Positions 3,241-63,985 of a stretch of DNA of 64,000 bases are shown in pieces. Made by a program: the position numbers and the translations under genes. The notes beneath the pieces are model-generated. The model made no database searches. It was not told the origin of the DNA and saw only the letters and a program-made list of their open reading frames with translations. The number at the start of each line of letters is the position of its first letter. Within the stretch, counting starts at the first letter, position 1. Location: assembly GCA_951406725.2 (NCBI GenBank), contig OX597819.1, positions 77,748,001-77,812,000 of the forward strand, read 5' to 3'. The DNA comes from Octopus vulgaris (taxonomy: Eukaryota).

Positions 3241-3439
3241 ATCATGCGGGGGTGGCATGACAGTAGTAGGATGTTGGTGGAATCATCTTAAATGGTCAAG
3301 TGACCTAAAAGTGACCCGTTGTGGTTGTAATAGTAGTGATTGGCATCGTTCTGAATAAATTCGTGGGTAGTGACTTTTCTGAATATATCGTTTTTAATAT
3401 TTGCGTGGGTATTATTCTAAGGCTCTCGTAATAGTGTCA

Positions 3440-3715
3440 TTTGTGGTGGACGCATTCAAAAGGAGTTTAAATTTTGTGATAAAATATGACTCTTTACTAA
3501 TGCGTTGACTACAGGTTGCATCGTCCCTGAATTGACCCTGTTTGGAAGAGAAAGCTGATCCTTCAATTAGATTGACGCATATACCACAGTCAGGTCTTCC
3601 GCATTTTTTTGCCGTCGGCTTCAGTGTTGTCGAGCGTATTCGGGCTTGTGTTAGGAGACTTTTCATAGATTTGGGCTGTCTTTTGCTCTTTATGATGGTG
3701 TGCGTTTGGAGGATT
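3440..3715 (-). pseudogene. Penelope-like element remnant: Cys-rich linker plus GIY-YIG C-terminus, internally deleted
   Basis: Translation IIKSKRQPKSMKSLLTQAR...KKCGRPDCGIC...RISKESYFITKFKLLLN fits the PLE linker (CxxxxCxxC) and the R..E..FI......LN end of the endonuclease. Confidence 0.65.
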
Positions 3716-3869
3716 AAATTCATTCGGTGGTCCGAATGTATGCATGTATGTATACATACATACATACGTATGAATGTATGTATGTCTGTATACATACATG
3801 CATAATACATACATACATACATACATACATACATACATACATACATACATACATACATACATACATACA

Positions 3870-3902
<33 letters not shown>

Positions 3903-4299
3903 GTATGTATACATACATACACACGTACGTACTTAGTACGTACATATATACATACATACGACCTTAATTCCGTGACAGTGACATAACTTTACTATAAAAA
4001 AATAGTTTTCAGTTTCACAAACCCAAAAGTAATTTAAACCCTCCAAATCCATTTCTGATACTCCACGCATTGCTAGTAATATTAAGTTCTTGTATGGAAC
4101 AGTACTTATACTGATTCTACATGATTTTATCTCGAAGTCAGGTGCTAGTGTGGTGCCCATGACACGCTATTGAGACTTCGAAACAGATGAGAGGAACAGA
4201 ATTATCTTCAAACCGGAGACCTGGTTCGATAGCTTCTAAAATAGTGGACTTTACTTAAGACACCGACGTACCAGATCGTGGTGTTTAACGAGCGATGGA

Positions 4300-38944: not shown

Positions 38945-39793
<849 letters not shown>

Positions 39794-40555: not shown

Positions 40556-40595
40556 GCTGTCTGATGAACGTTCATGTGAAACTCTGTGTAACAGG
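40556..40595 (+). ncRNA. Solitary type I hammerhead motif
   Basis: ctgt-CTGATGA-acg-ttca-tgt-GAAAC-tctgt-GTA-acag. Confidence 0.6.
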
Positions 40596-40641: not shown

Positions 40642-41978
40642 CTGGATCATCCCATAAATAATGCAGTTTTTTTCAACTTTGAAAAAAGTAACTGTTAAAA
40701 TCGAACAGCACCCTTCAAAACTGCAATAAGAATAAGTACAAGGTAAAATTTTTACCTGCTTTTATAGCAAGTTGATGCAAGTAGCTTATCCCGTCAACCT
40801 CCGCAGTTTTTTTCAATTGCGGAGGGTGACAGGATAAGCTACTTGCATCAACTTGCTATAAAAGCAGGTAATAATTTTACCTTGTACTTATTCTTATTGC
40901 AGTTTTGAAGGGTGCTGTTCGATTTTAACAGTTACTTTTTTCAAGTGACAGAGGAGCATATTCGGTATCTTTTGTTTTATGAGTTCAATAAAGGTAACAA
41001 CGCAACGGAAAGTGCGAGGTATATTAATGTAGTATGTAGGGATCGGACAATAAGCGTAAGCCAGTGTCAACGATTGTTCCAGAAATTCCAAGCCAGAAAC
41101 TACAAGTCTCCTCCTGGAAGATCTGTAGAGCTCGACGAGAATGTCCTGCAAACCCTAGTGGAGTAAAATCCCATTGTAACTTTTCAGGGACTAGCAGAAA
41201 AGCTTGGATTTGGTCATTCAACTATTTATCGACACCTGCGTGCCATCGGAAAAGTCAGCAACTTTCAGAGTCTAATCGCGCGCAGAGAGTGAATGTGTGC
41301 TTTTCTTTGCTGTCACGTTTCACGAATGAACCTTTTTTTTTTTTGACCGAATAGGGACTGGTGGCGAGAAATAGGCTTTCTATAGACATGTAAAGCGCCG
41401 AAGACAGTGGGGAGAGAAAGGAGAAACACCGGCATCCCAGGCTAAAGAAGGTCTTCAACCACGTAAGGCGTTGTTATCTAATTGGTGAGATATGAAGGGT
41501 TTAGTTCATTTTAAACTTTTAAACCCAAACCAAACGATGACAAAGATCTACTGCGAGCAGCTTGAGCGGCATAAATCAGCGCTAGAAGAAAAACGACCAT
41601 CTTTGGTTTCTTCCACCAGGATAATGGTCGGTCACATACAGCGAGGATGATATTCCAAAGACCGGAGCAGTTTGAATGGGAGACGATGCTCCAACCACCA
41701 TATTCGCCGAACATTGTGCCATCTGATTATTATTTATTCCACAGTCAGTTGGACGGAAAAAATATGAATTCTGTAAACGAGGTCAGAGCAGTACTGGAGG
41801 AGTATTTTTCATCACGGACAAGTGAATTTTGGATGAGGGGCCTTGCAAGTCTACCAGATAGAAGGAAGAGCATTGTAGAGAATGAAAGAGAGTATTCTTT
41901 AGATTTAAAAAGAAGATTCTTTTTCTTAATTTTGAATAATAAAAGTATAAAAAAACGCATTATTTATAGGATGACCCA

Positions 41979-42093: not shown

Positions 42094-42180
<87 letters not shown>

Positions 42181-42345
42181 TTGTTGTGCAATATTTTTTA
42201 TGTGAAGTCGTGTGTTGAAACAGATATTGTTATATTTCGGAATGGTCATATTGCCAGTTTAGCCAATAAAAACACACGCACTATATATTTGGTGTTATTT
42301 TGCTTCAGTGTTATTTATTTTTTATATTAATCTTAATCTTATTTC

Positions 42346-42390
42346 GGCCAGAGTTCTTTCGTCACACTCCTGTGACCGCATCAGTGGTCC
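42346..42390 (-). ncRNA. Hammerhead motif in the 3' pseudo-LTR (core variant CTGATGC)
   Basis: Same fold as 39142-39186 with an A9-to-C change. Confidence 0.7.
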
Positions 42391-42717
42391 TTTGTTTTCT
42401 CCTTTCTTATTTGTGTCTCTCTTTACTAACCGTCAGCCATTTTGTATTTCTATTGTATGTCTTCATTTGCGCATGCTTATATCTCTATGTGCGTCTATGT
42501 TTATTCATTGTGTGTATGTGGGGGGATGCCTGTAATATTTGTATCTTCTGTTTATATATGTTCATGTAATGTGTATTTTGTTTTTTGTTTTTGTTGTTTT
42601 TGTTTATTCTTATTTTGTTCATGTGTTTACATCCACTTATTATTATCATTACATATGCTTGTAAGTTTGTATGTATGTATAACAACAATACTAGTAATAA
42701 TAATAATAAATCGAATC

Positions 42718-42768
<51 letters not shown>

Positions 42769-42830
42769 GTTATTTATTTCTATTAGTTTATTTATATGTG
42801 TATTTATTATGTTTTCAGGATCCTCTATCG

Positions 42831-44078
42831 TCATATGTTGTGGTGTGTGTTAGTGCTCCATTCTAGTTTTCTATTCAGGCTAGGTTTATTTTCTATTATG
42901 TGTGTAGCTTCTGTAATTTGTCTAATTGTTGCATCTGATCTATGTGTGGATAATATTTTAATTTCTATGTTATTAATTGATCCCCCGTGTTCCTGTTCGG
43001 CGTGTTGGTACAGAATCGATGAGCTTTTACCTTCCTTGAGTTGTCTCCAATGCCCATTTACCCGCTCTCCTATGCTTCTTGCAGTTTCCCCTACGTATGT
43101 CGTTGTCTTGTTACTGCATCGTCCCTCTATACATCTTATACTATAGACTACATTTCTGGCTTTACAGTTTGTTTGTGGGCTAAATCTACATACAGTACAG
43201 TACTTATCCGTACAGGGGGTTCTACTAAAAGGATAGGTTCTACCAATTATAGATTTGATAGGGTTGCCTGGCTTTTCAACAACCTTAATTCTTAGCTTAA
43301 GTTAGTCTAGGGTCCTTCTAAAGCGGTACGCCAGTTCACCTCCAGGGGTGGTGTCAACGAACATGACACTCCTGGTATTTATGGCTATCATACCAAGAGT
43401 TGGCCTTCCCTATTTTCCTTTTTGTCCTTTCTATAGTGTTCCATGACTTGTTCCTACAGAGTGGGCAAATCCCATTCCTATCATTACATAATATATTATC
43501 AAATTTCTTCATGGCTCTTTTGTATACTCTGATCCTTTCTTTATGGCTGTAACCTGAGAACTGCATGCGGTGAATGAAATATTGTATGTGTCTCTTTAAC
43601 TCTGTGGGCTCGCACATGCGTGACACATTTCTCATTATTCTGACGAGGTCTGCCATCAAAATATTGAATTTGGCATTGTCCGCAATGACTGAGTTCCGGT
43701 GGATCAAGTATTTTGAGGCCATAGGTTTGGCATAGTATGAATGAAGGATTTGGGTTTTATTATTCACAATTTCTAGCCAGAGTTCAGTGTCTAGTACTGG
43801 TAGTCTATGGTTGGGGTGTTTAGTGGGGTTGTCTATTGTGACCTTAATACTCTGGTGGATGGAGTTAGCTATTTGCTGGATACTCTCCATAGTATTAGTT
43901 TCTATTACTATATCAACATTACTCTCTTGTGGTGCCTTTACCACTATGTTGATATCATCAACATAGCGAGAGTACATGTTTACGAGTATGGAGTTCTGTG
44001 TTTGGCGTTCTTTAAGCCTTCTGTCCCACCATACCATGAAAAGGTTGGCCACATCACCAGCGATACTAACGCCGATGG
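42831..44078 (-). pseudogene. PLE reverse transcriptase (partial) plus GIY-YIG endonuclease
   Basis: RT reads AIGVSIAGDVANLFM...YSRYVDDI...LPVLD. After a frameshift near 43375 and one TAA it reads CTDKYCTVC...CKARNVVYSIRC...YVGETARSIGERVNGH...RQITEA...PSLN. Confidence 0.92.
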
Positions 44079-44188
44079 CTGAATAGAAAACTAGAATGGA
44101 GCACTAACACACACCACAGCATATGACGATAGAGGATCCTGAAAACATAATAAATACACAGATAACTAAACTAATAGAAATAAATAAC

Positions 44189-44263
<75 letters not shown>

Positions 44264-44736
44264 GATTCGATTTATTATTATTATTACTAGTATTGTTGTT
44301 ATACATACATACAAACTTACAAGCATATGTAATGATAATAATAAGTGGATGTAAACACATGAACTAATAGAAATAAATAACTATGTATATATATATATTT
44401 TTTTTTTTCGATTCGATTTATTATTATTATTACCAGTATTGTTGTTATACATACATACAAACTTACAAGCATATGTAATGATAATAATAAGTGGATGTAA
44501 ACACATGAACAAAATAAGAATAAACAAAAACAACAAAAACAAAAAACAAAATACAAATTACATGAACATATATAAACAGACGATACAAATATTACAGGCA
44601 TCCCCCCACATACACACACTAAATAAACATAGACGCACATAGAGATATAAACATGCGCAAATGAAGATATGCAATAGAAATACAAAATGGCTGACGGTTA
44701 GTAAAGAGAGACACAAATAAGAAAGAAGAAAACAAA

Positions 44737-44781
44737 GGACCACTGATGCGGTCACAGGAGTGTGACGAAAGAACTCTGGCC
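44737..44781 (+). ncRNA. Hammerhead motif in the inverted pseudo-LTR (core variant CTGATGC)
   Basis: ggacca-CTGATGC-g-gtcaca-ggag-tgtgac-GAAA-gaa-CTC-tggcc. Confidence 0.7.
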
Positions 44782-44895
44782 GAAATAAGATTAAGATTAA
44801 TGTAAAAAATAAATAACACTGAAGCAAAATAACACCAAATATATAGTGCGTGTGTTTTTATTGACTAAACTGGCAATATGACCATTCCGAAATAT

Positions 44896-44931
<36 letters not shown>

Positions 44932-59506: not shown

Positions 59507-59648
59507 ATATTATTAGTGAATTGAAGAAATGGAGTTGAACGAAGATTGAACAGAAATCGTTTTATTGCATTCTACACCGAAACACGTGTAGAATGCAATA
59601 AAACGATTTCTGTTCAATCTTCGTTCAACTCCATTTCTTCAATTCACT

Positions 59649-59656
<8 letters not shown>
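59507..59656. repeat. Perfect inverted repeat with 71-bp arms and an 8-nt spacer
   Basis: 59507-59577 is the exact reverse complement of 59586-59656. Confidence 0.95.
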
Positions 59657-60545: not shown

Positions 60546-60611
60546 TTTACAATTCTAGTAGTTTACATTATTTACATTTGACGGATATTTGTCCTCTTCT
60601 TGTTTGTTGAT

Positions 60612-60654
60612 AACACGTTTCGGCTGATATACCCTCCAGCCTTCATCAGGTGTC
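60612..60654 (-). ncRNA. Hammerhead motif lacking the cleavage triplet
   Basis: Reverse complement reads gacac-CTGATGA-a-ggctg...cagcc-GAAAC-gtgtt; the GTC present in the other arm is absent. Confidence 0.65.
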
Positions 60655-60718
60655 TTAGAGAAATTTTGAACCTGGGTTCTCATTCCTAAGGTATTTTTTG
60701 ATGTTGTTGTGGTTGTTG

Positions 60719-60792
<74 letters not shown>

Positions 60793-60923
60793 GTTGTTGT
60801 TGTTGTTATTATTGTTCAAGTCACTGCCTGGAATCGAACCCGGAATCTTGGGATTAGTAGCCGCGCTTTTAACCCCAAGATTCCAAGTTCGATTCCAGGC
60901 AGTGACCTGAATAATAATAATGA

Positions 60924-60984
<61 letters not shown>

Positions 60985-61035
60985 GCATCGAAAAATAACC
61001 CTAGGAATGAGAACCCAGCTTCGAAATTTCTCCAA

Positions 61036-61081
61036 GTCACCTGATGAAGGCTGAAGGGTATATTAGCCGAAACGTCGTGTT
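61036..61081 (+). ncRNA. Hammerhead ribozyme with intact core and GUC site
   Basis: gtcac-CTGATGA-a-ggctga-agggtata-ttagcc-GAAAC-GTC-gtgtt. Confidence 0.8.
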
Positions 61082-62212
61082 AACAACAAACAAGATGAGG
61101 ACAAATATCCGTCAAATGTAAATAATGTACATAATCCCTCATTTCTTAAATATAGAACTGTAGAATTCTAGTAGTGTCTTCAACAAAAATATGCGTCTAA
61201 GTTGTTTCAAGTGGAATCAGGGCTGCTTCAATAGAGCTTTTGGTCCCCACCCCAGCAAAGCAGTGTCCTGGGACCCCTATAAACAACTTCAATCTGTAGA
61301 GATTTGCATTGGGTTCTAAGACACGTTGTTTCCCACCCCACCCGGACAAGTACACGGAATGTTTATGCCTTAAGATGATACTGGGTGGAATTACTGTGTC
61401 TCAAAGGACCAGTTTCCTTTGGATTCCCTACTGAAACATTACCGTAAGTTTCATTTCTTCAGAGATGTTTTTTTTTTAACCGAACTCACCTGGTTTGACA
61501 ATAACATAATGGGTTTTTGTTGTGGTTTCGTATGTATTTAGGTTAGTTTGTGCCACATTTTTGAAAATATCGTCTGTAAATTGATTTCAGTCGTTGTCTA
61601 TTTTCAGGGCTTTCAACTCTTTTATTTATCGGCAGTTTGGGGGACTGAGAGAAGTTCTTATTGATATCATTGAAGAGAACAAGTATGTGAGAAGCTGAAT
61701 GTTTGCGAGCCGTACAGCTTTGAAATAAACTACTAAGATGATGAGATCAGAAGATCAAAAGACAACGTTTTGAAACACCAGTCTAAAAAGAAAACACTTC
61801 AGACGCGACTCACTTCTTGATTAACGCAAACCTTTTGATTTTTTTTCTTTTCAAAATGTCTGAAGTAGAAGTTCATTATTCTTTCTTTATATATTAATGT
61901 AATCGCTAGCTATAACATTTATTATACTAGGATGTTAGAGACTTTCTTTCACAAATGTATCAATTAATCATCATGGAATTTTCGTTGTTTCCTTTCCAAA
62001 CTCCACTGCTTTACTTTGCTAGCGAAAGCATTGTTCGCTCAGTAAATATATAGAAATTTTGACTTTAACAGTTGTTTACAATTTGTAATAGAATTCGTTT
62101 TATACAGCTCTGTCATTTGCCATTGACTCTTAATACGAAACCCATATATATTTGTGACACGAAAACGTTTCTTGGATTGCTATCCATGTTATATGTTTTA
62201 TTTATTTATATA

Positions 62213-63228: not shown

Positions 63229-63985
63229 TCAACCCTCACCACTGACGAGAAGATACAACAAGCTCGAGAGATAGTAATGGTGAAACAGTGAGTTATTATC
63301 GGTGAAGCAGCTCGTCCTCTGCAGATTAGTCATGGTTTTGCCTTTCAAATCATGGTTCTGCCCTTCAAAGAAAGTCTGTGCAATATGGGTGCCAAGAGAA
63401 CTTACTGCAGAGCACAACCGCAAACGTTTTGAGGTCTGCCAACGTTTACTCGACCGCTACAACAATGAGGGCGAGGAATTTTTGAGCAGAATATTCACAA
63501 GAGATGAAATATGGGTCCATTATTATGAGGCAGAATGCAAAAGACAGAGTATGGAGTGGAAACATTCTGGCTCGCCAGCGACGAAGAAATTCAAGAATCA
63601 GTTTTCTGCAGTAAAGGTGATGCTAACCCTATATTGGGACTCCTGGAAAAGGGGTGTACGATCAACAGTGCAAGATACAGTGCTTTGCTGGCCAACAAAC
63701 TGAAGCCAGCAATTTGCACCAAACACCAAAGCCTATTGTTAAAGAAAGTTTTGTTGTTGCATGACAATGCACGCCCACACACGGCTGCTCAGACCGTTGA
63801 AACCATTAACGAACTGGGTTTTGAGGTTCTGGAACACTCTGCCTACAACCGAGATCTCGCCCCTTCCGATTATCATGTCTTTGGACCTCTCAAAGATGGT
63901 TTACGAGGTCGTCGATTTCCTACAGATGAAGATGTGTAGGAAGCGGTGCATAAATGGTTGCACTGCCGACCGAAAACCTTCTTGA
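63229..63985 (+). pseudogene. Mariner transposase, decayed and 5'-truncated
   Basis: WVPREL, TRDEIWVHYY, KVMLTLYWD, LLHDNARPH and YNRDLAPSDYHVF (D,D34D) motifs, with a frameshift and a stop. Confidence 0.95.

Follow-up and report, generated by a model that had tools for sequence, protein, structure and literature searches.

Elements of the Penelope type with a single ORF for a reverse transcriptase (RT) and a C-terminal endonuclease between pseudo-LTRs include anole PAc (PMC11167929), Adineta Pen2a (PMC3846280) and D. virilis Penelope (PMC2377424). They also share an inverted copy truncated at its 5' end, a tail of 30–40 bp on one side, target-site duplications some 10–16 bp long and a hammerhead that overlaps the start of the ORF. 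The PAc ORF starts at stem II and its reverse transcription is initiated internally, at two positions that delimit the tail, while in Pen2a the repeat and tail span the first 22 codons (PMC11167929, PMC3846280). The octopus family described here is like these elements in its ORF, flanks and hammerhead. On the other hand, their promoters are Pol II-like, whether described or putative (internal TATA-less; putative TATA/Inr), whereas in the octopus family the repeat opens with a tRNA-Arg A/B-box module and also has an (AAT)n tract, the module marks the start of 80% of copies, and the ORF is without shared TTTT runs. Helenus, Ajax and Cassandra (TRIMp3; PMC10886601) likewise have a Pol III promoter in the terminal repeat, derived from a tRNA or 5S and possibly acquired via SINE insertion. 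These are non-autonomous LTR elements with PBS/PPT and 4–5 bp duplications, whereas the octopus element encodes RT and endonuclease. In the schistosome Sm-alpha/Sj-alpha repeats, a Pol III-type promoter is likewise followed by a hammerhead; Sm-alpha is described as a non-coding tandem repeat whose ribozyme frees monomers (PMC6765202), whereas the octopus unit lies in a coding element, is mostly single or inverted, and retains the sequence on either side of the cleavage site. Non-LTR retrozymes are likewise short hammerhead repeats tied to Penelope pseudo-LTRs (PMC7761336, bioRxiv 10.64898/2026.07.22.740005). They are defined by tandem monomers and circular RNAs, whereas octopus tandems are rare and the octopus head is tRNA-derived; the word 'tRNA' is absent from the main text of the retrozyme preprint. 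No report of a Penelope pseudo-LTR that carries a tRNA or Pol III promoter was found in the open literature (Repbase, Dfam and SINEBase lay outside the search), and the word 'ribozyme' is absent from the text and supplement of a 2026 octopus repeat annotation (PMC13282606).

We analysed a 64,000-nt stretch of Octopus vulgaris DNA, referred to as the window, in which a tRNA-headed hammerhead SINE had been predicted at 60551–61175 (Table 1). The outline of the original prediction agreed with our alignments: a 601-bp insert lies between perfect 12-bp duplications, its two arms point outward (minus 60874–60563 and plus 60870–61163) and meet at a 5-nt TAACC within the tRNA-derived head, and the right arm exceeds the left at its 3' end by 33–34 nt, where about 33 had been noted. 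Each arm also has the proposed order of an (AAT/AAC)n tract, a 50-nt body and a hammerhead motif, but the parts are less complete than had been claimed. The quoted head sequence occurs in the left arm only; head remnants are found in both arms, but the right one starts 18 nt later and the A box is gone from both. Because the A box of family copies is lost in both arms, the insert is without a complete type 2 promoter. The left hammerhead is decayed, with 3 nt missing at the cleavage triplet. The GUC triplet predicted for the right arm is present but private to this copy: among 33 forward arms parseable by pattern in 70 loci, the triplet was GUU in 19 and GUC in 1, and stems I and II of the GUC-bearing arm are also substituted. 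As for model checks, ARAGORN found 0 tRNAs in the window, Rfam recognised neither a hammerhead nor a tRNA in the insert, and Rfam searches of the window, the insert and a near-typical copy gave no hammerhead and no useful hit. The hammerhead call rests on the core and stems, which read as a minimal type I hammerhead with palindromic stem III, a form known from Penelope elements (PMC6765202, PMC4209133).

Table 1 Features of the insert at 60551–61175 (positions in the window).
Feature	Position	Strand	Basis or remark
Target-site duplication, left, 12 bp	60551–60562	+	identity to 61164–61175
Inverted arm, 5'-truncated pseudo-LTR, tail absent	60563–60874	-	alignment; comparison with natural copy L061
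Left-arm hammerhead motif, decayed, cleavage triplet lacking 3 nt	60608–60654	-	alignment to copies
Left-arm (AAT/AAC)n tract	60704–60816	-	sequence
Left tRNA-Arg-derived head remnant	60817–60874	-	B box 60840–60830; last 2 nt of A box remain
Head-to-head junction microhomology, 5 nt, TAACC	60870–60874	.	sequence
Right-arm head remnant, shorter	60870–60909	+	B box 60886–60896; A box absent
Right-arm (AAT)n tract	60910–60984	+	sequence
Right-arm body	60985–61035	+	contains ATG 61007–61009
Right-arm minimal type I hammerhead motif	61036–61081	+	motif reading, without Rfam hit
Parts of the right hammerhead	core 61041–61047 and 61069–61072; triplet 61074–61076	+	palindromic 2-bp stem III
Penelope tail, 33–34 nt	61130–61163	+	in full-length copies continues directly into the ORF
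Target-site duplication, right, 12 bp	61164–61175	+	perfect match to the left one

The unit is almost certainly the pseudo-LTR of an abundant, autonomous, protein-coding Penelope-type family. Coding sequence preceded the head in 3 of the first 30 loci, and a search with that coding sequence added 29 loci, and in each of these the end of an endonuclease-type frame lies about 30 nt ahead of the head. Stepwise upstream extension led from the head through the RT to the 5' end, where repeat and tail enter the ORF directly. From its 5' end, the element consists of a pseudo-LTR (head, (AAT)n, ATG-containing body, hammerhead), a tail and an ORF with its stop codon, and a second pseudo-LTR follows after about 30 nt; the ORF, of about 2.3 kb, encodes RT and a GIY-YIG-type endonuclease. 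This is an autonomous Penelope-like element sharing the hammerhead and tail, and it contains every part of the unit. A natural open frame of 569 aa (P0001) matched RVT_1 with an E value of 2.7e-6 and had 2744 homologues, which carry PF00078 and, in some cases, PF01541. Pfam gave no GIY-YIG score on the decayed copies of this genome; the GIY-YIG domain was assigned by eye from motifs. Partial-tandem pseudo-LTRs around the ORF were present at L177, L176, L178, L189 and L193, and the family combines an ORF for RT and C-terminal endonuclease, an inverted 5'-truncated copy, a one-sided 30–40 bp tail and a minimal hammerhead, as in EN+ Penelope-like elements. Its putative placement as Penelope/Poseidon follows domain order and the shared hammerhead-in-ORF layout.

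In ORF-linked copies, the body ATG is in frame through the hammerhead and tail, which are the first codons of the ORF, and this ATG likely starts the family ORF. The frame from ATG through hammerhead to ORF, together with the N-terminus, is kept in a relative of 55% identity, P0004. The N-termini of P0004 and of a further Penelope-type protein, P0120, read like translated hammerheads, which suggests that the ribozyme-in-frame layout may be widespread in their group. A search for DNA of relatives at 55–68% protein identity gave no hit in the viral or prokaryote collections, and metagenome relatives were found only at 34–42% identity. Searching the octopus genome itself with P0004 gave 53 scored hits, which looked like the same family and fell in many cases at known places. 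Two copies, L193 and L181, have an in-frame (ATG)n expansion of 3–7 methionines at the same site in the RT region.

Genome-wide, exact 35-nt patterns matched 519 heads and 1598 hammerheads in 2.8 Gb, and the reversed controls matched 0. Among independently chosen copies, such exact matches were present in about 6% of heads (4/67) and about 8% of hammerheads (4/51); as a rough figure, the family comprises about 9,000 heads and 20,000 hammerhead arms, on the order of 10^4 insertions. The first 70 of the 519 head matches, on contigs C1 and C2, served as the head-anchored sample. The body lay downstream of the head in 61 of them, confirming that tRNA head and hammerhead are linked across copies, and 41 had an inverted arm. 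The tail was on exactly one arm in 29 of the 31 inverted pairs with both arms scorable (on none in 2, on both in 0), and 4 further inverted pairs had one shortened arm. This one-sided tail upholds the proposal that Penelope machinery rather than a LINE made the insertion. A junction-adjacent duplication of at least 10 bp was seen in about 23 of the 41 inverted loci by manual count without a chance control. The same footprint has been published for Penelope (PMC8557442, PMC3846280). On the 3' side, copies end within Penelope coding sequence at one of two fixed positions separated by 33 nt, and the LINE-type or simple-repeat 3' tail of a SINE was not found on them. As an insertion, 60551–61175 is an ordinary Penelope product.

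When tandem and inverted copies were tallied as had been proposed, inverted pairs or singles made up most of the sample, short tandems were few (L328/L333, L346), and the head-to-tail tandem monomers of a retrozyme or Sm-alpha were not found. The short tandems (L346:1200–2240, L328/L333) consist of body, tail and 65–119 nt of ORF start in up to four units, and at L090:1400–1500 an inverted head is repeated three-fold at one junction; both are signs of repeated template jumping. The (AAT)n tract is often interrupted by other repeats (L014, L015, L066, L088, L214, L217, L225), and since the tract is a landing site, truncation inside it appears inflated. The junction between ORF and head was bridged by contigs of four other runs with four organism codes. 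A helix check in 72 arms gave 1 compensatory, 26 one-sided, 33 broken and 659 unchanged cells, a tally of dead copies of one master, which cannot show covariation.

The family head best matched tRNA-Arg(TCG) of its own genome, with a z of 13.9 among 27 distinct tRNAs sampled, some isotypes being absent. This tRNA-Arg-derived head retains both boxes but not the fold: its tRNA covariance score is 10.8 bits (cut-off 29), and the stems are broken. The 5' ends of copies pile up at the head, lying within 15 nt of the A box in 56 of 70 copies as against 2 of 29 at an anchor in the ORF (Fisher P 7e-12), with peaks at −7, −10/−11 and −14 relative to the A box across the 70 heads. The same held for 19 of 29 non-inverted copies (P 5e-6). 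Among 30 loci anchored on the hammerhead (of 1598), 15 arms extend as far as the start of the head; by eye, 12 of these end there. A palindrome, TGCCC-AC-GGGCA, lies exactly at the head boundary, and part of the −14 peak consists of fold-backs. Of 9 junctions examined in direct tandems, 5 connect an N-terminal piece of the ORF with a head that begins at −14 to −12, indicating that these head ends are not fold-backs and that the ORF start was available as template.

Upstream pseudo-LTRs gave a more mixed picture. Seven of them reach the head together with the ORF start; four stop at the head (L348, L349, L367, L373) and the other three continue into the ORF end (L159, L162, L154/L194), while at L174 and L360 the ORF end is joined to the body and the head is deleted. 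Against 80%, the binomial P is 0.15 for 4/7 and 0.02 for 4/9. Because three of seven repeats pass the head and two join the ORF end to the body, some templates start further upstream and are tandem, circular or host-driven. A copy that starts at the head and is complete to the 3' repeat was not found; L379 and L380 break off.

The coding strand of the family is also unusual in its T runs. In a test conceived after the head had been seen and concerning one master sequence, no T4 site was common to even 20% of copies over the 2316 nt of the ORF (112 alignments, cover 10–76×); the same 2316 nt hold 12 shared T3 sites. From natural pieces without stops (784 codons), codon-aware nulls predict 3.3 and 4.9 T4 sites, with P of zero 0.02 and 0.002, respectively. 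Two copies of a control Penelope family, which is not a close sister, had 5 and 4 T4 sites, as expected, and most frames of this family are also without T5. Seven distant metagenome relatives had 2–9 T4 sites each, an eighth, short locus being left out. Among the tRNA genes of the octopus genome, 25 of 30 end within 40 nt in a run of at least T4, which is exactly T4 in 10 genes.

The tRNA promoter module, the copies starting at it and the strand without four-T stops together make it likely that the element is transcribed by RNA polymerase III, which normally serves short non-coding RNAs. Our main reading, to which we assign a probability of roughly 0.6, is that the insert is a head-to-head pair of pseudo-LTRs of an element whose tRNA-Arg A/B-box module starts its RNA through RNA polymerase III. 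This enzyme would start about 12–14 nt before the A box and, finding no terminator, could read through the ORF. The RT of the element would start at two positions within the RNA, separated by 33 nt, as in anole PAc; from the first repeat it would copy only about 280 nt to the RNA 5' end, which would give the many SINE-like solo repeats. Tailed and untailed cDNA would join head to head by microhomology at a staggered nick, yielding this insert. The minimal hammerhead within the reading frame would stay mostly uncut as a monomer, and self-cleavage is probably dispensable for insertion by analogy with PAc, for which cleavage is unnecessary for insertion (PMC11167929). Against the Pol III reading, the RNA would be uncapped and its translation would have to be cap-independent. 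In three raw, unstranded RNA-seq runs with a related species label, reads were equal in both directions, starts and ends did not pile up, and depth fell with copy number from body to ORF.

The original prediction had the unit as a non-autonomous SINE borrowing Penelope enzymes. That claim failed, as the whole unit lies inside an autonomous element and short copies are without diagnostic bases. A true SINE lineage, in which short copies of tRNA head, hammerhead and tail would be self-transcribed and multiplied in trans through Penelope enzymes without dependence on the full-length element, seems to us distinctly unlikely. It would fit the 80% of heads without an upstream ORF and the family head, which is tRNA-derived with A and B boxes as in a SINE; many solo copies keep both boxes and the tail, which would be sufficient in principle. 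In Adineta, pseudo-LTR sequences alone can mobilise other DNA in trans, and retrozymes have been argued to be non-autonomous PLE derivatives (PMC3846280; bioRxiv 10.64898/2026.07.22.740005). However, the majority base was identical at all positions between ORF-linked and short copies, both for heads (68 vs 65) and for bodies (56 vs 58), divergence was nearly equal (5.9% vs 5.0%), and polymorphic sites were common to both. The few nominal differences come from the stronger decay of ORF-linked copies and lie mostly at positions that the selection patterns had fixed. Since their majority bases are the same, short copies derive from the same masters as ORF-linked ones; a non-autonomous family that differs from its partner in all but a shared 3' end was not found, and the separate lineage was rejected. 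The autonomous element moreover holds every part of the short copies, whose tail is its coding sequence, and heads occur fused to N-terminal pieces of the ORF. Short copies in which the boxes are intact may be re-amplified, but no separate lineage was seen in this sample.

The shared 5' end could also have arisen without Pol III. It seems unlikely that the tRNA piece is a passive relic, the RNA coming from Pol II or host promoters and the pile-up from RT stalling or self-priming at the palindrome. This would explain why many junctions fold back through the palindrome at the boundary, and three of seven upstream repeats pass the head; 18- and 38-bp palindromes at the 5' ends of Adineta pseudo-LTRs were read as self-priming, and D. 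virilis Penelope has a LINE-like TATA-less internal promoter (PMC3846280, PMC2377424). The starts of the 19 non-inverted copies at the head and the direct-tandem junctions at −14 to −12, which are without fold-back, speak against stalling, as do the stem in the element's own sequence, of only 4 bp with a 4-nt loop, and a similar palindrome cluster in the body, where by eye at most 3 of 30 starts are adjacent. The missing T4 runs would be left unaccounted for, and the same applies to the least likely of the three alternatives, in which RNase P or another nuclease of tRNA processing would cut the RNA of another polymerase at its tRNA-like segment. One start peak, at −7 (9/70), coincides with the mature tRNA +1 position as a cut would predict, but by alignment count 30 of the 56 short starts fall at −9 to −15, upstream of +1, some of them being fold-backs, and the head with its broken stems scores far below the tRNA cut-off.

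It is possible, though we put this forward tentatively, that an autonomous element switched to Pol III altogether: it would have captured a tRNA-Arg promoter and would make a terminator-free 3-kb RNA, translated without a cap from the ATG behind an (AAU)n leader and acting as the common template of full-length copies and of SINE-like solo repeats in their thousands, so that SINE and enzyme partner would be one transcript. Retrotransposons that encode proteins are taken to depend on Pol II (on Pol I in the case of R2), and a Pol III promoter is the mark of a non-coding passenger. If true, a Penelope element that has a tRNA promoter and no Pol III stops on its coding strand would break this division between Pol II and Pol III. 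It would make testable the start sites of Penelope RNAs and the reason why a hammerhead lies in the reading frame, and thousands of SINE-looking octopus repeats would need relabelling as Penelope pseudo-LTRs. Octopus SINEs named OK, OR1 and OR2, with a tRNA-Arg origin, were reportedly described by Ohshima and Okada in 1994; the short form may already be catalogued among them, apparently without the link to Penelope.

The window contains other mobile elements. The original prediction had likened the geometry of the insert to that of a Penelope element at 42180–44898, which indeed has inverted arms of unequal length; this copy is, however, 5'-truncated, is spread over two frames and has no sequence in common with the unit. 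As a partner of the unit it was rejected, with DNA matches of at most 12 nt and a match only in a 33-residue RT motif. It belongs to a different and younger Penelope-type family, of which the top copies are 98–99% alike among 1371 first-look candidates, with open frames near 690 aa elsewhere and without the A/B-box pattern. The copy at 42180–44898 sits between (TA)n tracts, and a hammerhead-core motif at 39153–39180 (minus strand) matches the repeat of its family; further core motifs at 2351–2373 and 40561–40581 (both plus strand) may belong to other families. By eye, a frame at 3412–3963 (minus strand) has a cysteine-rich, Penelope-endonuclease-like stretch, and fragments of a Mariner/Tc1-like transposase were recognised from motifs at 63284–63939 and 41575–41900. 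A perfect 71-nt inverted repeat with an 8-nt gap lies at 59507–59656.
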